Positions 18,369-27,797 of a stretch of DNA of 64,000 bases are shown here, in pieces. The position numbers and the translations under genes were made by a program. This stretch comes from Escherichia phage AV123: the sequence record OR352953.1; one strand, 5' to 3'. The notes beneath the pieces are model-generated. The model was given only the letters and a program-made list of their open reading frames with translations, had not been told where the DNA came from and made no database searches. Position 1 is the stretch's first letter, and each line of letters opens with the position of its first letter.

Positions 18369-21244
18369 TGTCAAGAATTAAGCACAGAATTGACAATGTT
18401 TTCCAACTGATCGATGGACATATTCAGTTCTTAGATCGTAATACAGGTTTAACTGTAGATCCTACAGTGCAACACTATGTATTAAACCCACAAAACGTTC
18501 TAGCTAATAACAGACACTTTATAAACTGGACTGCTCAAGAAGGGCAACCAAACGGGGATGCTACAACAGAAGGTCAATCCGTGCTTATTCTTGGTTGCGC
18601 TTATGCATACCTGGCTTCCGGCGATACAAAGTATTTAGACTCTGCTAAAAAATATTGGCAAGCCTATATAGATTACTTCTTTGGTGGTCAACCTATACCA
18701 GATCCGCCAGCAAAATATCGCCCTAACTGGATTATTAACGGTAAAGAACCACGTCTTGCACATTATCCTCTTACAGATGATGGCTACCCTACACACGGAG
18801 GTTTTAAGGGTAGCTTAATGACGTGGACTAACGGTAGAACAGTTATTCCTCATGGTGCTCCGCATTGGGGAGAATACCTTGACAAAGCATGGTTTGCTTT
18901 TAATGGTAATCTAGGATGGAACTCTGTAAACGCTACAGTATATGCTGTTAATGCAGATGGTACAACAGATTGGTCTAAGAATGGAGATCAATGGGATGTT
19001 GATTGGATCATTGATCGTCTAGGACGTAAAGTTGATTGGGATGGAAATATCTTAGAAGAAGGTTTTCCAACATCTCAATACGGAACAGTTCAACTAAAAA
19101 ATACTTCTGTAAACGGTACATATAAATTTAACTACGCGACTTGTAACCCTGTTGAACACGGTGGTTATTTAATGGAGCGTAACACTATGTGGCATAACAG
19201 ACCAGTTAACGTTCCGGTAGAAATGGGCTTTCAGGATAATGCGTCAGATGCTGAAACTTGGTGGTGTGATGCTAATTACCTGATGTACCAAATTACAGGA
19301 GAAAGAAAATATTGGCTATGCTGGCAGTCTTCACTGTTAGTGTGTCAAGATTACTCAAACATTGATATGTTTGATAAATTCTTCCGTAAGTCTACATATG
19401 CAACTATCCCGTTTACAGATGGCATCTCTTACGATTATTCGTATCCATCTACAGCAATACCTAAATATTCAAGAGATACTTTAGGTTATATTGTTATTAG
19501 ACAAGATGTTGCTGCTCAAACAACATTAGAACAGCAAGCCATTTGGTTTAAAGTTGATCAGAACTCTAAGTTACGAGTTCAGTTTCAAGGTGTAGATGAC
19601 GCAGGACATGGTATTCTTTTCCGTCCAGAGTTGGAACTAAGTAAGACCAAAGATGAAAATAACACAGTAACTTACCGCTGTGGCTTACCACTGGGTACAG
19701 CTAATATGACAAGCATGGATATTCCATTATCCAGCTTTATGAGAAGCACCCCTCCAAGTGGTGGAACATATATTATCGCAGATCCGCGAATTATTGTTGA
19801 CTGGGGTGACAATACTGTGGTACAATATAAGTATGTAACAGGTATTGCTGGAACTAATAATGACCAGATTGTTACTGCATCAATGGATACGGATGGTGGT
19901 GTTACTGTTGGTTTTTGGTTAACTCCTACATCAAAAGCTAATGTTAAGTCTATTACATATAGAACATATGAAGATGACTTTAACATGACTATCACGGATG
20001 CTCAAGGTTGGAGATGGTGGGCTATGCTGCCTAAAACGCAAGGGGCATGGAGTACGAAGACTTTATCAGCCTCTGCTTTTAAGTTAAGTGCTTACCAGCC
20101 TAATCATCCAGAAACAGATCCTAAACCTTCAGCAATAAATCTTACTGCTGTAGATCAGGTAAATTTAGTTCTTGATACGGCTCCTGTCAATGGTTTAACA
20201 GGAACAATAGATTTCTATTGTATTAACGATGTACCTGAAAGATATTCGTCATCTTCTGGTGATGATTATACCATGTACTTCCGTATTACTGTACAGGCTT
20301 CAAGTCCTCATACTGCTAAGTTAGGTGATTGTACTATTATTGACTATAAGTTAAATAGTCTTAATTACACACCAGGAATAATTCCATTCTCTAATATCAG
20401 TGACCCAAACACTGCATTATACGATGGATGGCGTGGTATTCCATACCCAGGATACCAGTATCCTTCCTTATACTGTTTCGCAGGTAGGGATATTGATTGG
20501 ACACGTTTAAACAACAGTATTGATTTCTTGTATGATGCTCAAATGTGGTTTTATAACACGTTTGATCCTGTGATGCCTGGGCCTATGGCACAAGCATATG
20601 TGTGGGATCGTTGGGATGCAAGAAAATACGGTGAACCTAATACGTTTACAATGAAACACTGGAATGAAAAAGCGTGGGATGGTTATGAAGCTCGTGCATT
20701 CTACTGTGCTTGTCATGCTGTATACGAACTTGTACAAAGAGGAGAAACACCTCCTGAAAAACTAGTAACTGTTTGTAAAAATTGGATCAACTACCTTAAA
20801 TGGTTCCAAGACAATAATGATGGAAGAACACCAACTATCTTTAATCCAGATGGTACAGTTCTTGCACCTATAGATGACTTTACTAGTCATATGTCTGCAC
20901 TGTTTATGGCGGGTTGTTCAATCATGGGCTTGGCAGGTTATGATTCACAAATTCCAAACATTGGTATTGTAGCAGACAGATGTTTTGATCTGATTCAGCA
21001 AAACTATATTGTGCTTTCCCCTAACCATCCGATGAATGGTTCCTGGAGTGTTGCACCACGCCCAGATTCAGATAACGGAATGTTCTTTGGTTTCCATGCT
21101 GGAGAACTATTACGTGGTTTTGGTTTATATGCCTTATATCGTAAACTAAATCCTCAAAACGCCTTACCAATTTTGGACAATAGTAACATACCGACACTAA
21201 CTGTTCTAACTATGAATGATATTAGTGTTGATGTAACCAAATAA
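18368..21244 (+). CDS. large tail-associated protein (receptor-binding or host-glycan-degrading, function unknown)
   Basis: 958 aa ORF in the baseplate/fibre block, start overlaps the preceding stop. No catalytic motif recognised by eye. Confidence 0.4.
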   Translation: MSRIKHRIDNVFQLIDGHIQFLDRNTGLTVDPTVQHYVLNPQNVLANNRHFINWTAQEGQPNGDATTEGQSVLILGCAYAYLASGDTKYLDSAKKYWQAYIDYFFGGQPIPDPPAKYRPNWIINGKEPRLAHYPLTDDGYPTHGGFKGSLMTWTNGRTVIPHGAPHWGEYLDKAWFAFNGNLGWNSVNATVYAVNADGTTDWSKNGDQWDVDWIIDRLGRKVDWDGNILEEGFPTSQYGTVQLKNTSVNGTYKFNYATCNPVEHGGYLMERNTMWHNRPVNVPVEMGFQDNASDAETWWCDANYLMYQITGERKYWLCWQSSLLVCQDYSNIDMFDKFFRKSTYATIPFTDGISYDYSYPSTAIPKYSRDTLGYIVIRQDVAAQTTLEQQAIWFKVDQNSKLRVQFQGVDDAGHGILFRPELELSKTKDENNTVTYRCGLPLGTANMTSMDIPLSSFMRSTPPSGGTYIIADPRIIVDWGDNTVVQYKYVTGIAGTNNDQIVTASMDTDGGVTVGFWLTPTSKANVKSITYRTYEDDFNMTITDAQGWRWWAMLPKTQGAWSTKTLSASAFKLSAYQPNHPETDPKPSAINLTAVDQVNLVLDTAPVNGLTGTIDFYCINDVPERYSSSSGDDYTMYFRITVQASSPHTAKLGDCTIIDYKLNSLNYTPGIIPFSNISDPNTALYDGWRGIPYPGYQYPSLYCFAGRDIDWTRLNNSIDFLYDAQMWFYNTFDPVMPGPMAQAYVWDRWDARKYGEPNTFTMKHWNEKAWDGYEARAFYCACHAVYELVQRGETPPEKLVTVCKNWINYLKWFQDNNDGRTPTIFNPDGTVLAPIDDFTSHMSALFMAGCSIMGLAGYDSQIPNIGIVADRCFDLIQQNYIVLSPNHPMNGSWSVAPRPDSDNGMFFGFHAGELLRGFGLYALYRKLNPQNALPILDNSNIPTLTVLTMNDISVDVTK

Positions 21245-21252
21245 GGAAAATA

Positions 21253-23412
21253 ATGAAACAGGCTATTTTTACTGTAACTCGAAATACGAGAGTAAATGCC
21301 AGTTCATTCAGCTATAAGACCGTCGATGGAACGGCGGTCGCTGGTAGAGATTATGTAGCTAAACAGGGAACAGTAACGTTCCCTTCTGATGCAGATTCTG
21401 CTACTGTAGTGGTTGATGTATATGAACGTCCGGCAAACTCTTTAGATCTTTATTTTACTCTTGAGATTACTAGCATAAGTCAAAATAACATGATGATCAA
21501 TGAAGAAATTCGTTGTGTTATTACGACTAATCAATCGAATACAACCCCGCTAACTTGGCCTGTTGTGAAGTCTAGAATGTTTGATCCTAAGTTTTGGACA
21601 ATAGATTCTCAAGCAACAGAAAGTTGTTCTATTATCTCTAATGGTGATTCTTTCACAGCAAGAATGGTTAATAGGACAGTGGCTGGTCTTGCTGGGATTA
21701 TTTGGTCAACTTACGATAAATATGATCACAAAGGATTAGGCTACCAAGAACATTCTGACTTAAGTAAAGAGAAACTTTGGTTTAAAATGGAACTTAGTCA
21801 AGGTGTTCCTGGATTAAAAGAAGAAAAATTATTGCCATCCTTAACAGTGACACTGAAGGATGAAACAGTTCATTATGTATCTCTAAACTTTTATGCAGAA
21901 GAAGTTTCAGAGGATGGTAAAACAGCAACAATAAAATTAGATTTCTCAAATTTAAAATCTGGGCCAGAAAATGATATTGTTGTTGACACTACACAGATAG
22001 ATAATATGTTCTTCTCCTTGATCTCCACAAGGTATCAAGAAATTGAAGATATTATTCCTGTAGACAATGAGGATCTTTCCTTTAAGTTTACCATACTGGA
22101 ACCTGATACGGGTTATAGTATGATGAATATGGGTAATTTAAATGTTCCAGCACACACCATAAGAATGTGTACATCTTATGATGATATGTATAACCTTACC
22201 CCAGAGCGAGTTATTTCTAACACCTACAGATTAGGTTATAGGGATATGATTAACCACTATAATGGTATGTCACACTATTATCAATTTAGTTGGGACGCTG
22301 GCTCTAATAAATGGGCTTTAAACAGAACAGAATATTTAAACCCAGCAACAGAAGCCTGGTTTGATAACTTCCACGCTAATGCAAAAGCTATGGGTTACAC
22401 AGTAATGAACTCCTTAAGTTTTGAACTTATGAGTACAGTGTGTCCTGTAGAATGGGTACAACATACTTGGAATGATGATCTTGCTGCTACAGGTTATGAG
22501 CCACCAAGTTATGTTTTATCTCCTTCAATTGATGAAGGGATGAATTATTTACAAGGTGTAATAAATAAGATAGCTTCTATATCTGCTGCTAATGATCTTC
22601 CGGTTATTATTCAGGTTGGTGAACCGTGGTGGTGGTATAACACAGCTACTAATCTACCGTGTATTTATGATTATACAACCAAAGTTGCATTTAATAATGA
22701 AACTGGATTGTATGCACAAGATGTTGGTACAGTTAAAAATTATAAAACTGGTACACCATATGATGAATATTATGCATTCCTATCTAAAACATTAGGACTG
22801 CGTGTTGCTAAATTTGCAACAGATACCAGATTAGCATATCCTGGAGCTAAAGTTACATTGTTACCATTTGTGCCATCCATTTTAGGTAATGGTATGATGG
22901 AGTTTGTTAACTTCCCTAAAGATTATTATATCCCAGAAAACTTTGACTTTTATTGTTCAGAATGTTATGATTGGTTGTTGGAAGGTAAGATGGAAAGATC
23001 TTTTGACGCTATCACAATACCTAATGAGCAACTAGGTTTTAGTTATGATAAGATACATTATCTTGCAGGGTTTGTTCCAGATGCAACTCTAGCACCATTA
23101 TATGGCTTTGATCCTGAATCAGACTACAGAACATATTTGTGGAAAATGATTATAGGTAATATTGTATTGAATGACCAGAAGTTTGTTGGTTTATATCAAT
23201 ACATATGGGCTTATCCACAAATAATGCATGATTCAATAACTATTCTTAATTCAAAATCCCAAGTTTTTTATATGGGTAATGTGCCTTTGAATTGCTATTT
23301 GCAAGATATCACTCTTAAACAGGTAAATGTTACGATTGCTACTATAAGCGGAATTACATTAGCCACTAAATCTGGAGAAGATTTAGTAACAACACAAAAA
23401 TTTTATATATAG
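21253..23412 (+). CDS. tail-associated protein with N-terminal Calx-beta-like domain
   Basis: SFSYKTVDGTAVAGRDYVAKQGTVTFPSDADSATVVVDVYER matches the Calx-beta pattern (G.A..G.DY.....TL.F). Remaining 600 aa of unknown function. Confidence 0.4.
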   Translation: MKQAIFTVTRNTRVNASSFSYKTVDGTAVAGRDYVAKQGTVTFPSDADSATVVVDVYERPANSLDLYFTLEITSISQNNMMINEEIRCVITTNQSNTTPLTWPVVKSRMFDPKFWTIDSQATESCSIISNGDSFTARMVNRTVAGLAGIIWSTYDKYDHKGLGYQEHSDLSKEKLWFKMELSQGVPGLKEEKLLPSLTVTLKDETVHYVSLNFYAEEVSEDGKTATIKLDFSNLKSGPENDIVVDTTQIDNMFFSLISTRYQEIEDIIPVDNEDLSFKFTILEPDTGYSMMNMGNLNVPAHTIRMCTSYDDMYNLTPERVISNTYRLGYRDMINHYNGMSHYYQFSWDAGSNKWALNRTEYLNPATEAWFDNFHANAKAMGYTVMNSLSFELMSTVCPVEWVQHTWNDDLAATGYEPPSYVLSPSIDEGMNYLQGVINKIASISAANDLPVIIQVGEPWWWYNTATNLPCIYDYTTKVAFNNETGLYAQDVGTVKNYKTGTPYDEYYAFLSKTLGLRVAKFATDTRLAYPGAKVTLLPFVPSILGNGMMEFVNFPKDYYIPENFDFYCSECYDWLLEGKMERSFDAITIPNEQLGFSYDKIHYLAGFVPDATLAPLYGFDPESDYRTYLWKMIIGNIVLNDQKFVGLYQYIWAYPQIMHDSITILNSKSQVFYMGNVPLNCYLQDITLKQVNVTIATISGITLATKSGEDLVTTQKFYI

Positions 23413-23420
23413 GAGTAAAA

Positions 23421-25616
23421 ATGTCAACTACAATTACTAATTTACCCGAAACATCAAAAGTTAATGGTTCAGATTACCTGGTTTTAGATCAACCTAATAA
23501 AACTGTTAAAACCACAGTTTCCAACTTTCTTACTGACACTGGGGTGGTTTTAGCCACCCAGTTGAAAGATACAGGTGGAGCAGATTTAATACAATCCTCA
23601 AATGGTAATACTGTTCAGGAAGAGTTGAATAACAATCTTCTTAATGATCGTGAACTATGGCATCGTAGTCTTGCTGAGGCAGGGTTAACTCTTGTCAACG
23701 GTAGCTTTGAAGATGGCGCTATATTAAATAATAAGACGGATGCTGTTTGGTATATTGCAGGTGGACAGTGCTATACATGGGGTGGTGCTTTCCCTAAAGC
23801 TGTTCCCGCTGACTCAACCCCTGAAACATCCGGTGGTGTTGGGCCGGGTGCGTGGGTTTTGGTGAACGCCACCACCCAGCTACCTTATGTCACCCCTGAA
23901 ATTTATGGTGCAAAGGGTGATGGCGTAACTGACGACTTGACCGCGATACAAGCGGCATTAGATTCAGGTAAAGATGTAATTTTTTCTAAAAAATATACAG
24001 TATCAGCCCGTTTAACTTTGAAAACTAATAACCAGACTCTACAATTTATTAATGGGTCTTCTTTGATGTGCAATGTACCGACAGTTACCTTGCTGTATGG
24101 TTCTGGTGTTACAGGTGTCAAAATCTTTAATGCTCGTCTTGCCTCCAGTTCAGGTTCTACCAACACATATAATGGTTCTTGTGTTTGGTTAGATACATGC
24201 TCATATTGTTGCATTGAAGATTGTGTGTTTTCTAACTATAAAGCCTCGGCGGTATTTCTAAATAACTCAAGTTATTGTAATGTTGTGAGATGCACATTTT
24301 TGGGATCTCCGGGGGCTGCTGGTGACGTGACTATGTGGCGTTCCAATGTGGGGCACTTGATTTCTGATAACAATATGGTTTCTGGTTCAGATACTGCTAT
24401 TGTTTTGCAAACAATTGATGATGGGGACCATTCTAATGCCAACAGAATAGTTAACAATACTATTGAAAATTGTACGCGGTATGGTATAGTCGTTTATAAC
24501 AATCTGGAAACAAAGACAGGGACACTCACCAATACATTGGTACAAGGGAACACCATTAAGAATATTTATGGTAATGTTCTTAATACCACAACCCAAACAT
24601 ATACTTACGGATCAGGGATATACATTTTGTCTGCCGAAGGTATCAAAGTGATTGGGAATACCATAGATCTCACAAATCAAAACACCGATTCTACGACACT
24701 TTCACCAGCGTGTATTGGTGTGAACGCAACATCTGAAGCCATTATTTCCAATAATATAATTTCTCGTGGGGCTTATTATGGGATTATGATTTCAGATGCA
24801 CTACAGCAGGGGGTAGGGACTAACGCCAATTCTGAATCATTTAAACCAAATTCTACTGTCGTTGTTGCTAACAATATTATTAAAGCATGTTCCCGTAGCG
24901 GGTTGTATATCTTTAATCATCATAATGTTAAATGTGTGGGTAATATCACTATTTCCAACACACAAAATGGGGTTCTCACAGGTGCTGATAATGCGTTATA
25001 TCCAACTTTAAACAATATTGAAATTCTTTCGCACACTTCCAGAGAAAATACTATGGCTGGTCTGTCAATAACAAAATGTGATACCCCTACGATTGATGTA
25101 TCAGAATGTAAGGATAATTCGGGAGATGGAATCTATTGTTCTTCAATAAATGCTGTTATCAAAGTGGGGAGCGTAATTCGGAACAACAGAGGGATCGTGA
25201 TTGCAGCTTCCGGTTGTTCAATAATGGGCGGTAGAGTCACAGGGAATACTACAGGAATATTATCTACTCTTAGTTATAAGTTGATTTCTGCTTATGTAGC
25301 TGGTAATACTACAGATTATTCTGGGGATTTCGGTCCAATTTTGTCCTACAAAGGTAACTCTACACCATCAGTCAAAGACAGAGATACGATCATCCTGAGC
25401 GATGCCACTACCATAACCGATTTCACTGATGGTGTGTTGGGCCAGACAATTAAGATTAGGGCCACAGTTAATGGAACGGTTATTTCTCATAATTCATCCG
25501 GTATACGTCTTAAAGGGAATACCTCATTCTCTATGCAAGCTGGAGAAACATTGACGTTAACTAAATTTTACACGAACCAATGGGATGAAATATCTAGAAA
25601 AACCGTAACCGAATAA
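23421..25616 (+). CDS. tailspike protein with pectate-lyase-like right-handed beta-helix (putative polysaccharide depolymerase)
   Basis: N-terminal anchor motif (SDYLVLDQPNKTVKTTVSNFL), then YGAKGDGVTDDLTAIQAAL (pectate-lyase-3 type hallmark), then many repeats of the form NN.I..C.R.G consistent with beta-helix rungs. Confidence 0.65.
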   Translation: MSTTITNLPETSKVNGSDYLVLDQPNKTVKTTVSNFLTDTGVVLATQLKDTGGADLIQSSNGNTVQEELNNNLLNDRELWHRSLAEAGLTLVNGSFEDGAILNNKTDAVWYIAGGQCYTWGGAFPKAVPADSTPETSGGVGPGAWVLVNATTQLPYVTPEIYGAKGDGVTDDLTAIQAALDSGKDVIFSKKYTVSARLTLKTNNQTLQFINGSSLMCNVPTVTLLYGSGVTGVKIFNARLASSSGSTNTYNGSCVWLDTCSYCCIEDCVFSNYKASAVFLNNSSYCNVVRCTFLGSPGAAGDVTMWRSNVGHLISDNNMVSGSDTAIVLQTIDDGDHSNANRIVNNTIENCTRYGIVVYNNLETKTGTLTNTLVQGNTIKNIYGNVLNTTTQTYTYGSGIYILSAEGIKVIGNTIDLTNQNTDSTTLSPACIGVNATSEAIISNNIISRGAYYGIMISDALQQGVGTNANSESFKPNSTVVVANNIIKACSRSGLYIFNHHNVKCVGNITISNTQNGVLTGADNALYPTLNNIEILSHTSRENTMAGLSITKCDTPTIDVSECKDNSGDGIYCSSINAVIKVGSVIRNNRGIVIAASGCSIMGGRVTGNTTGILSTLSYKLISAYVAGNTTDYSGDFGPILSYKGNSTPSVKDRDTIILSDATTITDFTDGVLGQTIKIRATVNGTVISHNSSGIRLKGNTSFSMQAGETLTLTKFYTNQWDEISRKTVTE

Positions 25617-25672
25617 ATATTGATCAATAGGGGTTAAGTGCTCCTCTTCTTTTGATGCTATTTATCAAAACA

Positions 25673-25811
25673 GAGTATCATCACACCGCAATGTTTCAAA
25701 AACATTGACAACTTTGTGTGCACAAGTTATAATGCACACACGTTAATAGATGGTTTGTGTGGCTTGCCGCACTTTACGACACAACAAGAACAAGCGACTG
25801 AGTATCATCAC
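25673..25811 (+). repeat. 12 bp direct repeat pair (GAGTATCATCAC) flanking a promoter
   Basis: Identical 12-mers at 25673-25684 and 25800-25811. Confidence 0.5.
25705..25733 (+). promoter_or_regulatory. perfect-consensus sigma70 promoter (TTGACA-17-TATAAT)
   Basis: TTGACA at 25705-25710, 17 nt spacer containing the palindrome TGTGCACA, TATAAT at 25728-25733. Confidence 0.6.
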
Positions 25812-25838
25812 CCTGAAGGGGAAATCATCTCCTTCAGG
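25812..25838 (+). other. stem-loop (CCTGAAGG-N11-CCTTCAGG) in the transcribed leader
   Basis: 8 bp perfect inverted repeat. No downstream U tract, so probably not a terminator. Confidence 0.4.
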
Positions 25839-25874
25839 TGGTGTTCAGTGCATAACGTATAAAAGGAAAAGTAA

Positions 25875-26012
25875 ATGTTAAATTACACCACTAGTCGCCC
25901 AACAGTAGCTATCTCAGATCTTGATAGCACTGGGGTTGTAACTTTATCAAACGATCTTGTCGTGGATCAACCTGATGCCACGAGAAAGGCCTCTTTAGCC
26001 TCTGTTCTGTAG
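25875..26012 (+). CDS. small ORF (45 aa) resembling a tailspike N-terminal anchor domain; possible gene remnant or small adaptor
   Basis: MLNYTTSRPTVAISDLDSTGVVTLSNDLVVDQPDATRKASLASVL shares the anchor motif with the N-termini of the 17895 and 23421 proteins. RBS AAAAGGAAAAG. Below the ORF-track size cut-off. Confidence 0.35.
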   Translation: MLNYTTSRPTVAISDLDSTGVVTLSNDLVVDQPDATRKASLASVL

Positions 26013-26064
26013 ACCTTGGGGAATTAGCTGTATATCGTGATTTAAAAAGTAATGAGAACGCACC

Positions 26065-26310
26065 ATGAGAAAATTTTTAATAGGTATGTTCTGTACATAT
26101 CCTGATAATAAAGTCAGTTCTACTAAAGTTTGGAATGCTATTGGTATGATTGTTATGTCCAGTATGTTTATTTATTTGGGAATTGATAAAGAAATTCCTG
26201 AATGGATGGGCTGGGCTTTTGTTTTTATGATCACACCATCCAGACTAATGAAGAATTTAATAGATTTACGTTGGGGCAGATCACCTGCCCCTGATAAGGA
26301 GGATAACTAA
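26065..26310 (+). CDS. small membrane protein (2 predicted TM segments)
   Basis: 81 aa with hydrophobic stretches AIGMIVMSSMFIYLGI and WMGWAFVFMITP. Weak RBS. Confidence 0.35.
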   Translation: MRKFLIGMFCTYPDNKVSSTKVWNAIGMIVMSSMFIYLGIDKEIPEWMGWAFVFMITPSRLMKNLIDLRWGRSPAPDKEDN

Positions 26311-27797
26311 TGGCAGATTATGGTTTAACAGATGCTGGTTTTGTAATTCCAACGTTTGATGATATTTTAAATAATTATATGACAGCATTGAAAAACACTT
26401 TCGGTGCAGATACAGCTACATCCGAAGATACTGTCTTTGGTCAACTGTTTCGTATTATTGCATATACAGATTACACCCTTTGGGAAGGTATGCAAGGTGT
26501 TTACAATACCCAAACCTTAGATGGTGCAGAAGGTATTTACCTTGATGAAATTTTCTCTAAAAGGGGTTTTTATCGTAAAGCTGCTTCTGCTGGTAGTGGT
26601 TATGCTTATGTTAAATCTAACAATAAGGCAGCTTGGACTTATGAGCTAAGCACAGATGTTTATTTTAATGCTGATAACGATTTAACGTATTATGTCAGTG
26701 CACCAACAATGTTGAATGCTAAGATTGGAGCGTACACCATTTCTAAAGCAAACGCAACAGCTTCTGGTGAAACTTCTATTACTTTCTACATTCAAAGTGC
26801 TATTGATGGTGGTCTTAACAGTAAAACATTAAGTCCTAGCAATACAAACTTTATTTTAGATCTCACGAATTTCATTAAAGCTAACGTATCAACAACAGAT
26901 CGTGCTTTAGTATGGAATGATGCTAGTAATGTTTACATGGGTTATAATCCAGAAGATAATGTTAACCCAATAGGTCTAGTAACACCAGTGAAATTTTACG
27001 CATCTATTGCAATTGGTACAAAATGGAGTGAAATTCCAGTTACGTGTTCAGACGTTGGTTATAATCCAGTAGGTACAGAAAGTATCACAGGTATTTCTTC
27101 AACGTTTACAGGCTTTTTAGATACAGGTAACTTCTATCCATTCTCTCCAGGTACAGATGTTGAAACAGATGCAGAATTCCGTTCTCGTTTCAATGATAAT
27201 ATGGATGAAGCTAATGCTGCTACTCGTGCTGCTATTGTTAAAGCTCTGCTACTGACAGATGGTGTGACAAAGGTTAAGATTTATGATAACCCTACATTAC
27301 ATGATCAGGAACATGCTCCAGCTATGACATTCCAGACTATTGTGTATGGTGGTACAGCAGAAGAAGTTGCACAGGTTATTTATAATACTAAGCCTATTAA
27401 CACCCTAACCTATGGTACAACAGCAATTACTATCGTAACAGAAGATGGTGGTCAAGAAGTAATTCGTTTTTCTCCTGGTGACAATGCTGAATATTCACTT
27501 AAACTAGTATATCAAACTGGCAATGGTAGTGTGTTAAGTACAACAGAAAGAGAAAATATTGTTTCTGCTCTTTCAAATCTACAGGCTTATTTTGAGTTAG
27601 GGTCAACAGTAACTAACGATCAGATAAAAGGTGTAATTTATTCTGCACTTGCGTTCGGACGCTTGACTTCTCTCCGTGTTTATGTTAAACTTAATACTGA
27701 GGATGACAGTAAATATAATGAGGGAGATATCACTCCAGCGTACAATGTTGTACCATCCTTTGACCTTGATAATATTTCCTACGAGTACGGAGTCTAA
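26310..27797 (+). CDS. baseplate protein (J/gp6-like, putative)
   Basis: 495 aa with strong RBS AAGGAGG, followed by a small I-like gene, a fibre gene and a putative fibre chaperone (J-I-H-G-like order). Assignment by position and size only. Confidence 0.4.
   Translation: MADYGLTDAGFVIPTFDDILNNYMTALKNTFGADTATSEDTVFGQLFRIIAYTDYTLWEGMQGVYNTQTLDGAEGIYLDEIFSKRGFYRKAASAGSGYAYVKSNNKAAWTYELSTDVYFNADNDLTYYVSAPTMLNAKIGAYTISKANATASGETSITFYIQSAIDGGLNSKTLSPSNTNFILDLTNFIKANVSTTDRALVWNDASNVYMGYNPEDNVNPIGLVTPVKFYASIAIGTKWSEIPVTCSDVGYNPVGTESITGISSTFTGFLDTGNFYPFSPGTDVETDAEFRSRFNDNMDEANAATRAAIVKALLLTDGVTKVKIYDNPTLHDQEHAPAMTFQTIVYGGTAEEVAQVIYNTKPINTLTYGTTAITIVTEDGGQEVIRFSPGDNAEYSLKLVYQTGNGSVLSTTERENIVSALSNLQAYFELGSTVTNDQIKGVIYSALAFGRLTSLRVYVKLNTEDDSKYNEGDITPAYNVVPSFDLDNISYEYGV

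Follow-up and report, generated by a model that had tools for sequence, protein, structure and literature searches.

Latka et al. (2019, PMC6872550) described truncated second receptor-binding proteins (RBPs), in which the conserved N-terminal peptide alone is kept, in Klebsiella podophages (group C of KP32virus and group C of KP34virus). For the Ackermannviridae, Sorensen et al. (2021, PMC8432352) described how tailspike receptor-binding modules are exchanged at motifs that are conserved within the TD1 domain. Phage phi92 has a multivalent adsorption apparatus, attributed to genes 140-151 (Schwarzer et al. 2012, cited through PMC11990801); a cryo-EM study infers that its endosialidase gp143 is 'fiber I' and gives gp145 as a wedge protein (PMC13450770). 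For rV5, sigma-70-like promoters have been predicted only, on a genome-wide scale (PMC3606486).

The locus described here lies in a 64-kb window (the whole stretch of DNA analysed) of Escherichia phage AV123, a phi92-like myophage (Justusliebigvirus). The two phages have the backbone gene order gp139-gp140-gp141-gp142-spike-gp144-gp145-gp146-gp147 in common, and the spike gene, which is swapped in AV123, occupies the position of the phi92 gp143 endosialidase gene. The 48 bp between genes 143 and 144 of phi92 contain one hairpin but neither a promoter nor a stub, whereas an island is present in AV123 (25617-26064), which places the island outside the conserved backbone. A sequence-only reading of the window had placed the island between the 23421 tailspike gene and baseplate genes. 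Pfam and PHROGs agree, with a beta-helix tailspike upstream and homologues of the phi92 gp144 membrane protein and gp145 Baseplate_J wedge downstream. The first conserved backbone gene downstream of the island is the gp144-like gene. The region is very probably the right-hand end of a horizontally acquired tailspike cassette, and hence a recombination scar at an RBP hot spot. The case is a well-resolved but ordinary exchange of phage host-range modules, with no new kind of element.

Like the truncated RBPs of KP32virus and KP34virus, the mini-ORF in the AV123 island is a short ORF at an RBP locus with broken synteny, in which the anchor is kept and the enzymatic domain is lost, and both are read as products of horizontal exchange of RBP modules. 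However, AV123 is a phi92-like myophage rather than a Klebsiella podophage, its stub, at 45 aa, is far shorter and runs out of frame into an older stub of another anchor type and, unlike in the Klebsiella case, a donor-type locus with a full-length gene has been identified. AV123 also resembles the Ackermannviridae, in that conserved N-terminal modules or short motifs appear to be the recombination sites by which beta-helix modules move between spikes and phages, and the older stub of AV123 (26006-26068) is the end of a TD1-type module. In contrast to the TD1 exchange, the left crossover in AV123 lies in the STPETSGGV motif of Tail_spike_N and the right one would be illegitimate, and the recipient is a Stephanstirmvirinae phage that has the TD1 module as an orphan only.

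Table 1. Features of the AV123 tailspike locus, with coordinates in the window.
Feature	Position	Strand	Basis or remark
Tailspike gene, 731 aa, at phi92 gp143 position	23421..25616	+	Pfam Tail_spike_N (residues 92-148), Beta_helix
Left crossover zone in STPETSGGVGPGAW, a conserved motif that closes the Tail_spike_N module	23820..23873	+	Three-way alignment PD06/AV123/L012
Imported cassette: receptor-binding domain, island, 43 codons from the next tailspike gene of the donor	23874..26003	+	blastn against PD06
Weak terminator-like hairpin with T-rich tail, directly 3' of the tailspike stop	25629..25655	+	Terminator scan
12-mer GAGTATCATCAC, copy 1	25673..25684	+	L012 has GGGTATCATCAC at the same place
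AT-rich inverted repeat CAATGTTT-CAA-AAACATTG	25689..25707	+	Read from sequence
Sigma-70-type promoter TTGACA-17-TATAAT	25705..25733	+	12/12 match; predicted start ~25740
Leader hairpin 1, 6 pairs	25757..25772	+	RNA fold
Leader hairpin 2, long interrupted stem	25794..25851	+	RNA fold; no U-tract after it
12-mer GAGTATCATCAC, copy 2	25800..25811	+	In 5' arm of leader hairpin 2
Shine-Dalgarno AGGA, 7 nt upstream of the mini-ORF ATG	25864..25867	+	Read from sequence
Mini-ORF, 45 codons, relic of the donor's next tailspike gene	25875..26012	+	Homology to full-length spike N-termini
Right junction, microhomology (G)TTCTGT, out of frame	26003..26009	+	Alignment PD06/L011/AV123/L012
Older orphan tailspike N-terminal module relic: last 20 codons (SVDLGELAVYRDLKSNENAP) and stop	26006..26068	+	Continuity with PD06
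gp144-like small membrane protein gene	26065..26310	+	phrog_1322, E = 5e-27; synteny with phi92 and PD06
gp145-like baseplate wedge gene (Baseplate_J)	26310..27797	+	Pfam PF04865, phrog_6

The limits of the cassette are given by phage PD06, which is 98% identical to AV123 and differs in this segment alone (blastn). Identity to the PD06 tailspike is 98% through 23873, beyond which the sequences are unrelated, and the same level of identity resumes at 26004, so that the breakpoints fall at the border of a tailspike module on the left and in the last codons of the mini-ORF on the right. Codons 1 to about 140 of the 731-aa tailspike comprise the resident N-terminal anchor and the Tail_spike_N module, and the remainder is an imported beta-helix receptor-binding (depolymerase) domain. 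This part is 96-100% identical to P0003 of the metagenomic contig L012 and shares about 50% protein identity with tailspikes of Klebsiella podophages. The whole cassette is 100% identical in phage AV125, the backbone of which is about 80% and the flanks 61-83% identical, and it is also 100% identical in phage cardinal over the portion present in that record. The three phages that share the scar are identical over it, and the 25617-26003 part of the island occurs, at 100% identity, in AV125 and cardinal and in no other of 50,697 phage records. Host origin of the island was rejected, since a sensitive blastn search of 5,426 complete E. coli genomes gave zero matches. The left crossover lies within the conserved STPETSGGV motif. 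Since this motif ends the Tail_spike_N module, a crossover here would keep the resident anchor and bring in a new receptor-binding beta-helix. At the right junction, L012 reads ..ATC CTG TCT and the PD06 stub ..GGT TCT GTA GAC; because the exact donor was not found, we infer the microhomology from L012, a donor-type relative.

Homology between L012 and AV123 spans 23808-26010. In L012, the same receptor-binding domain stands on a different anchor (P0003) and is followed by a homologous island of 262 bp, carrying the same promoter and hairpins, and then by a gene for an 850-aa tailspike, a full-length Tail_spike_N protein at the position of the mini-ORF. Identity to AV123 is 53-92% in the island and 64-82% in the stub. 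The sequence-only reading had suggested that the island is the scar of a deleted or exchanged tailspike gene and that related genomes be compared for a full-length tailspike at this place. Such a gene is found in L012 behind the homologous island and, together with the PD06 breakpoints, it bears out an exchange. At all homologous loci, a tailspike gene with its ribosome-binding site and start codon follows directly on the promoter and leader. Searches of IMG/VR and of the JGI metagenomes with exact and degenerate patterns of the promoter and hairpin arms returned 0 matches in each.

The 45-codon ORF noticed in the island consists of an N-terminal anchor peptide alone and ends where a Tail_spike_N domain would start. 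At the Shine-Dalgarno site, AAAGGAAAA is conserved ahead of every tailspike gene of its class (A'). The similarity to local anchors that had been pointed out is collinear and amounts to 36-39% identity (E about 2.5e-4): residues 10-45 correspond to residues 6-41 in the 17895 protein (157 aa) and to residues 2-37 in the 23421 tailspike (731 aa). However, identity rises to 60-80% with residues 3-45 of full-length tailspikes of 690, 757 and 871 aa, which argues that the anchor is foreign and not a local duplication, and the peptide is likewise homologous to the start of the 850-aa L012 gene. The full-length relatives were found only by an index-free HMMER search of representatives, and a word-indexed protein search with the 45-aa peptide gave only its self-match. 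The best tblastn match in 2.3 Gb, to fibre or tailspike N-termini of rV5-like phages, has E = 4e-3, and the match to phrog_7760 ('tail fiber protein') has E = 1.3e-3. A sequence search of the PDB matched the Tail_spike_N part (query residues 35-111 across matches) and left the first 40 residues unmatched. In the rV5-like phage FENT2, a 712-aa spike with the anchor type of the mini-ORF is encoded directly upstream of the baseplate wedge gene.

The PD06-matching sequence that follows the cassette starts inside the 3' end of the gp102 gene. Residues 1-94 of gp102 match tailspike PHROGs with E down to 1e-62, and gp102 matches the 5' ends of TSP genes in Kuttervirus and G7C-like phages. This older stub is of the Kuttervirus TSP1 TD1 type; in PD06 it is 102 aa long and its first 60 residues are identical to CBA120 TSP1. 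The relic at 26006-26068 matches the 3' end of the intact module, in a frame that differs from that of the mini-ORF and is closed upstream by a TGA at 25973. A programmed frameshift from the mini-ORF into the conserved SVDLGELAVYRDLKSNENAP tail was considered and rejected, since the target frame opens only at 25976 and inspection from there to 26012 found no slippery heptamer (X XXY YYZ). In L011, the stub is fused to the downstream relic through an in-frame junction, not a frameshift. The proposal of a hot spot for receptor-binding modules holds well, as the locus differs in nearly every relative compared, with six different arrangements among phi92, PD06, alia, ESCO8, PHB05 and EC.P2. Left endpoints within the older stub are ragged across relatives (query positions 1, 75, 215, 299, 357, 387, 396, 433 and 490).

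These comparisons establish where the breakpoints lie, how the donor-type locus is arranged, that the promoter is conserved and that stubs at the locus decay, and the following history is proposed. A phi92-like phage with a PD06-type backbone would have recombined with an uncultured rV5-like myophage, whose lineage would have carried tandem tailspike genes of class A', every one of them with a sigma-70 consensus promoter of its own in front, followed by a structured 5' leader and a strong ribosome-binding site. On the left, the crossover would have been homologous, in STPETSGGV, retaining the resident anchor and adding the new receptor-binding beta-helix. On the right, it would have been illegitimate, at a microhomology of 4-7 nt. 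There the donor's next spike gene, at its codon 45, would have become fused out of frame to about codon 83 of an older orphan stub, which phages of this group have upstream of gp144. The island would then be the intergenic region of the donor, with its weak terminator, promoter and two leader hairpins, and the mini-ORF would be the anchor-only stump of the next donor spike. Later, the scar and the receptor-binding domain may have spread together by homologous recombination to phages such as AV125.

It is unlikely that the mini-ORF peptide is instead functional and under selection, acting as a plug, decoy or stoichiometry regulator at the baseplate docking site of the spikes. The ORF does retain the anchor motif in full, together with a strong promoter and a good ribosome-binding site, and anchor-only ORFs are recurrent, with lengths of 45, 68, 98, 102 and 110 aa. 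However, the junction of the mini-ORF is out of frame and runs to a fortuitous stop codon, its anchor is of the donor type with the lower identity to the resident anchors given above, and in close relatives that are viable, the stubs found here carry frameshifts, internal deletions or 5' truncations, or are missing altogether. The other A' stubs (68, 98 and 110 aa) all end at module borders, and since such borders are prone to recombination, recurrence is explained without a function. For intact copies of the 102-aa stub, dN/dS is 0.08-0.14, a warning that orphan anchor modules are not necessarily junk, although the low ratio could reflect repeated recombination with full-length Kuttervirus genes (82-87% DNA identity). 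The broader proposal, that the orphan anchor-only peptides of all five lengths are recurrent small virion or assembly proteins which cap docking sites or compete for them, expressed from a cassette-borne consensus promoter, is similarly improbable. If it were true, anchor-only peptides would tune the number of each kind of spike mounted on rV5/phi92-type baseplates. Under the reading as the scar of an exchange, the 45-aa peptide may be translated, presumably without a required role.

The leader between promoter and mini-ORF is structured, the 141-nt fold having a free energy of -42.3 kcal/mol (z = -3.2). The stem of leader hairpin 1 is kept in L012 with a two-sided change from G-C to A-U, as judged from two sequences only. 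The hairpin reported at 25812-25838 is real (11 pairs, 5-nt loop), but is only the tip of the longer stem of leader hairpin 2. In L012, the 3' arm of this longer stem is identical, while the 5' arm is different, pairs better and has no 12-mer. The tip was also considered as an intrinsic terminator and rejected: the stem is there, but no U-tract lies 3' of it, the following TGGTGTTCAGTG pairing into the longer stem, and it is absent from the terminator scan list. The suggestion that the island is a small regulatory RNA gene, extending from the promoter to the long hairpin (about 25740-25851), draws on the stability of this hairpin some 55 nt downstream of a strong promoter and on the retention of both leader structures in L012. 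However, the curated covariance models of Rfam find no known small RNA family in the island at gathering thresholds (best E = 0.27), the hairpin is not followed by a terminator, and in L013, L015 and L022 the leader is shorter and the hairpin different. Moreover, promoter and leader lead into the ribosome-binding site and start codon of tailspike genes at the homologous loci and correspond to the native 5' region of the donor tailspike gene. A small RNA gene is therefore very unlikely, and a structured 5' UTR of an mRNA is the simplest reading of the leader.

Two further details of the sequence-only reading are present as described, the 12-mers, of which there are exactly two copies (starts at 25673 and 25800), and the 8-bp palindrome TGTGCACA in the promoter spacer. 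An exact repeat of at least 12 nt in a random 448-nt sequence has a probability of about 0.009. However, copy 2 and the palindrome are missing from the homologous islands and are probably lineage-specific rather than functional. At the position of copy 2, the hairpin arm of L012 reads CTGAACACCACC, and L012 has the promoter segment without this copy, so that the 12-mers were rejected as the duplicated target site of a small mobile element with a promoter; nor were terminal inverted repeats seen. The palindrome was likewise rejected as an operator, since it is not conserved, the homologues having TGTGCATA, GCATGTATA and TGTGTGTATA. The terminator-like hairpin is conserved in L012, and other cassettes at the same locus likewise have a hairpin 3' of the spike gene. 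The AT-rich inverted repeat, which abuts and overlaps the -35 hexamer, is found again in L012 and L022; L015/L016 retain it with a two-sided change, and the L013 version has one mismatch. L012, L013, L015, L016 and L022 derive from the samples ERZ8974715, SRR23253421, SRR16894903, SRR16894757 and SRR16894772.

The perfect consensus promoter reported in the island is present (TTGACA at 25705-25710, TATAAT at 25728-25733, 17-nt spacer) and is the single 12/12 match in the window on both strands. Besides AV123, five metagenomic loci, representing four distinct sequences, have it ahead of tailspike genes of the same class. At these six loci, comprising five distinct sequences with AV123 included, the hexamers and their 17-nt spacing are unchanged while spacers and flanks have diverged. 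The promoter is probably real, because it is conserved upstream of this class at the five other loci. The alternative that all these elements are chance matches in a decaying intergenic spacer, with no activity and a dead promoter, agrees with totals of promoter-like and terminator-like sites between 17 and 33 kb that equal the shuffle expectation and with the lack of conservation of the 12-mer repeat and spacer palindrome, but is less likely still than a small RNA, given that just about 0.07 such 12/12 matches are expected per 64 kb (first-order Markov model), that hexamers and spacing are invariant despite the divergence around them, and that the promoter sits between genes, 3' of a terminator-like hairpin and oriented toward the downstream genes.

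A phage 'moron' is a self-contained transcription unit with its own promoter and terminator. The AV123 import may be likened to a moron, in that a terminator-like hairpin and a consensus promoter came with it into a block of late genes. Unlike in morons, the gene originally served by the promoter is truncated and backbone genes are now downstream of it. The promoter would now fire in AV123 and may add to the transcription of the downstream baseplate and fibre genes. Imported cassettes could in this way carry a strong host-type promoter, of predicted activity, into a late operon.

At this locus, the change of one receptor-binding enzyme in a broad-host-range myophage can be followed base by base, apparently by homologous recombination within a conserved linker motif at one end and by joining at a microhomology, in the dispensable remains of earlier exchanges, at the other. 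This is of use for the annotation and engineering of phi92/rV5-like therapeutic phages and shows where spike modules are swappable. The 'hypothetical proteins' of 45 aa and 48 aa in cardinal and of 45 aa in AV125 are probably not genes.

Some minor ORFs complete the description of the island. There are no ORFs of at least 30 aa on its minus strand. A 43-codon ATG ORF (25750-25881) is present without a ribosome-binding site, and a 48-codon GTG ORF (25716-25862), which is annotated in cardinal, starts within the promoter, upstream of the predicted transcript start.

The island between the 731-aa tailspike and the gp144 gene, 448 bp long, is a new and unusually well-resolved instance of receptor-binding protein (RBP) module exchange in a phi92-like phage, rather than an element of a new kind. 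In Klebsiella phages (PMC6872550) and the Ackermannviridae (PMC8432352), receptor-binding domains are known to be exchanged behind conserved anchors, and RBPs cut down to their conserved N-terminal peptide have been described; the event described here is of the same kind. The sequence-only reading had proposed the scar of an exchanged tailspike gene, and this is borne out both by a block foreign to the close relative PD06 (23874-26003) and by a full-length gene at a donor-type locus on the metagenomic contig L012. Structural genes on the plus strand of the window reach to about 36.7 kb, and beyond them come genes for replication and metabolism on the minus strand. The region around the island is matched by phages of the Stephanstirmvirinae, most closely by Escherichia phage cardinal (96.9% over a 1-kb query) and PD06, both of the genus Justusliebigvirus, and the gene order is that of phi92 (see table). 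A 2026 cryo-EM study located gp145 and gp146 in the baseplate wedge and inferred gp143 to be 'fiber I' (PMC13450770). The gp142-like protein has Pfam matches to Calx-beta, NCTSP_N and TIM-barrel_NCTSP (non-contractile tail sheath protein; E = 1e-81) despite the contractile tail.

Genes around the island and anchor-only remnants (stubs) in the window and related contigs
Feature	Size	Location	Remark
gp139, then gp140	157 aa	17895	order as in phi92
gp141, then gp142	958 aa, then 719 aa	gp142-like: 21253-23412	order as in phi92
Tailspike at gp143 position	731 aa	23421	order as in phi92
Mini-ORF	45 codons	25875-26012	
gp144 membrane protein		26065	order as in phi92
gp145 wedge		26310	then gp146, gp147; order as in phi92
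A' stub	68 aa	L015 5001-5207; L016 153-359	runs into upstream region of next spike's promoter
A' stub	98 aa	L022 358-654	
A' stub	110 aa	L011 6001-6333	in-frame fusion at AGS motif to older TD1 stub tail
Older stub	102 aa	L003 (PD06) 8757-9065; also L017, L018, L019, L020	remnant in window 26006-26068

PD06 is 98.3% identical to the window over 17030-23873 and 97.9% from 26004 on, and nothing in it aligns to the block between. This block begins at tailspike codon 152, directly after Tail_spike_N (Pfam residues 92-148), and terminates in the final codons of the mini-ORF. In AV125 (genus Phapecoctavirus), whose flanks are 61-83% identical, a single mismatch (23662) is found across 23600-26072, and the island, taken as the 387 bp 25617-26003, matches both AV125 and cardinal at 100% identity and is absent from all other of 50,697 phage records, even by sensitive blastn. 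The PD06 breakpoints and the identity in AV125 and cardinal show that receptor-binding part, island and mini-ORF travel between phages as one unit. The imported receptor-binding domain (23874-25616) shows about 50% protein identity to tailspikes of 40-kb Klebsiella podophages (Whistle, IME264, K16PH164C3), a likeness that hints at a capsule-depolymerase specificity common to E. coli and Klebsiella capsule types.

Both junctions of the cassette were placed by aligning the window, PD06 and L012. On the left, PD06 equals the window as far as ...GACTCAACCCCT, beyond which the window tracks L012 through GAAACATC.GGTGGTGTT (STPETSGGV motif), and the position of this switch puts the crossover within the conserved end of Tail_spike_N. 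On the right, the window reads GCC TCT GTT CTG TAG ACC TTG GGG, L012 GCT TCT ATC CTG TCT TCT and PD06 GCG GGT TCT GTA GAC CTT GGG; the two parts were joined within CTGT or GTTCTGT with a change of frame, as a result of which the mini-ORF meets TAG (GTA GAC in PD06).

The mini-ORF itself is present as first described, with AGGA 7 nt 5' of its ATG, and its proposed likeness to tailspike anchors was recovered: residues 10-45 are collinear with the N-termini of the 157-aa and 731-aa proteins (36-39% identity, E ~2.5e-4), and the N-termini of fibre and spike genes of rV5-like phages also align with them. An index-free HMMER search with the 45-aa peptide as query brought up the full-length tailspikes P0003 (690 aa), P0005 (757 aa) and P0007 (871 aa), each with 60-80% identity to it over the first 45 residues. 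P0003 has essentially the same beta-helix as the 731-aa spike of the window, behind a different N-terminal module. Its contig, L012 (ENA ERZ8974715), has the order sheath initiator, P0003, 262-bp gap and 850-aa Tail_spike_N protein, the last being the full-length tailspike that the sequence-only reading had suggested looking for at the mini-ORF locus. The L012 alignment spans window 23808-26010, with identities of 96-100% in the receptor-binding domain, 86-92% from the terminator-like hairpin through the promoter, about 53% in the mid-leader, 84% in the long hairpin and 64-82% over the first 45 codons of the 850-aa gene, indicating that the island is the spacer native to a tandem pair of tailspike genes, with the mini-ORF as the beginning of the second gene. 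The donor lineage is uncultured and related to rV5-like phages; its baseplate genes share 65-69% DNA identity with Seunavirus, Vequintavirus and related genera over about one-third of the region, and Seunavirus FENT2 has a 712-aa spike with the mini-ORF anchor type directly upstream of the wedge gene. The donor-lineage contig L015 also holds two HNH endonuclease genes (2498-3163, 3857-4366) among its baseplate genes.

The perfect promoter reported for the island, TTGACA-17-TATAAT, is found at 25705-25733 and is the sole 12/12 match on either strand of the 64 kb (0.07 expected per 64 kb under a first-order Markov model). Besides the window and L012, it lies upstream of spike genes of type A', the donor-lineage class to which the mini-ORF anchor belongs, in L013, L015, L016 and L022. 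Across these six loci, which represent five distinct sequences, hexamers and spacing are invariant, spacers vary at several sites, and downstream of the -10 comes a run of CACACA; invariant hexamers and spacing with varying spacers are the signature of selection on promoter function. The spacer palindrome of the window promoter shows no conservation among the loci compared. An AT-rich inverted repeat, CAATGTTT-CAA-AAACATTG (25689-25707), abuts and overlaps the -35 hexamer, is retained in L012 and L022 and also, with both arms changed together (AAAGTTT/AAACTTT), in L015/L016; it could be an operator or the remnant of an upstream hairpin. The direct repeat also holds, GAGTATCATCAC being present at 25673 and 25800 only (P ~ 0.009 for a repeat as long within 448 random bases). 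L012 is without the second copy, the corresponding hairpin arm being CTGAACACCACC, which makes the repeat particular to the lineage of the window and probably without a role. Elsewhere in the backbone, a gap after a 659-aa tape-measure-like gene (14240-14354) contains a strong GC hairpin with a T-run, then TTGACA-18-TAAAAT with an extended -10 TG, suggesting that sigma-70-type promoters inside the structural block are normal for this phage. Sigma-70-like promoters have been predicted across the rV5 genome (PMC3606486). Two further plus-strand ORFs are probably spurious: a 48-codon GTG ORF (25716-25862), annotated as a hypothetical protein in cardinal, starts inside the promoter, and a 43-codon ATG ORF (25750-25881), encoding a basic peptide with four Cys, has no ribosome-binding site and overlaps the mini-ORF start.

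Counted from the predicted start, the leader is 141 nt long and has a folding energy of -42.3 kcal/mol (z = -3.2). The stem-loop noted at 25812-25838 exists as the tip of a longer interrupted stem (25794-25851, hairpin 2). Hairpin 1 (25757-25772) is retained in L012 with a G-C to A-U exchange, and hairpin 2 there shares its 3' arm exactly with the window but differs in the 5' arm; such retention, seen in two sequences, is suggestive. Shorter leaders, with another hairpin, are found in L013, L015 and L022. The small RNA gene offered as an alternative is unsupported, since an Rfam search of the island found nothing and no U-tract follows the 25812-25838 hairpin.

Under the cassette lies an older stub, an orphan N-terminal module of the Kuttervirus TSP1 TD1 type. 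From the equivalent of 26004 on, PD06 runs through the 3' end of gp102; this ORF encodes 102 aa, and its TGA stop codon overlaps the gp144 ATG. Residues 1-94 of gp102 match many tailspike PHROG N-termini (E down to 1e-62). At the DNA level it shares 82-87% identity with 5' ends of TSP genes from Kuttervirus and G7C-like phages, and residues 1-60 are the same as in CBA120 TSP1 (orf210). The TD1 module has been proposed as a recombination site by Sorensen et al. (PMC8432352). Many phi92-like phages carry the orphan ORF. PD06, tuntematon, ukendt and dw-ec have it intact, while SF1-1 has a frameshifted copy and alia one with an internal deletion (49 aa). In ESCO8 and EC.P2 it is cut short at the 5' end and has lost its start codon, in the window it is truncated too, and in PHB05 it is duplicated around an insert; phi92 lacks it and has only 48 bp and a hairpin instead. 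Left endpoints within it are ragged across relatives (query positions 1, 75, 215, 299, 357, 387, 396, 433, 490). Together, these endpoints and varied forms make a pattern to be expected if successive spike cassettes end arbitrarily in a dispensable buffer. In PHB05 (L007 3253-4060), the junction is duplicated in tandem along with a 5' portion of the gp144 gene, the copies flanking the inserted fragment, which is another type of rearrangement at the same hot spot. In the window, the relic and the mini-ORF occupy different frames, that of the relic being blocked upstream by a TGA at 25973, and no slippery site is present.

That the 45-aa stump is itself functional is very improbable. Anchor-only ORFs do recur (45 aa in the window and 68, 98, 110 and 102 aa elsewhere), and intact 102-aa copies have a low dN/dS (0.08-0.14), both of which call for caution. 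On the other side, all the stubs end at one of two module borders, sites at which recombination would be expected; viable relatives carry decaying stubs; the right junction of the window is out of frame; and the low dN/dS could stem from full-length genes of co-infecting phages that repeatedly patched the stub. In the most likely present working of the island, the imported promoter, with a predicted start at 25740, would supplement transcription that passes or stops at the weak post-spike hairpin, its structured leader would probably stabilise the mRNA, ribosomes could translate the stump, and the transcript would continue into the gp144 and gp145 genes and further. PD06 couples the start of gp144 to the stop codon of the stub through an ATGA overlap; this coupling is lost in the window and also in ESCO8 and EC.P2, so its loss is evidently tolerated.
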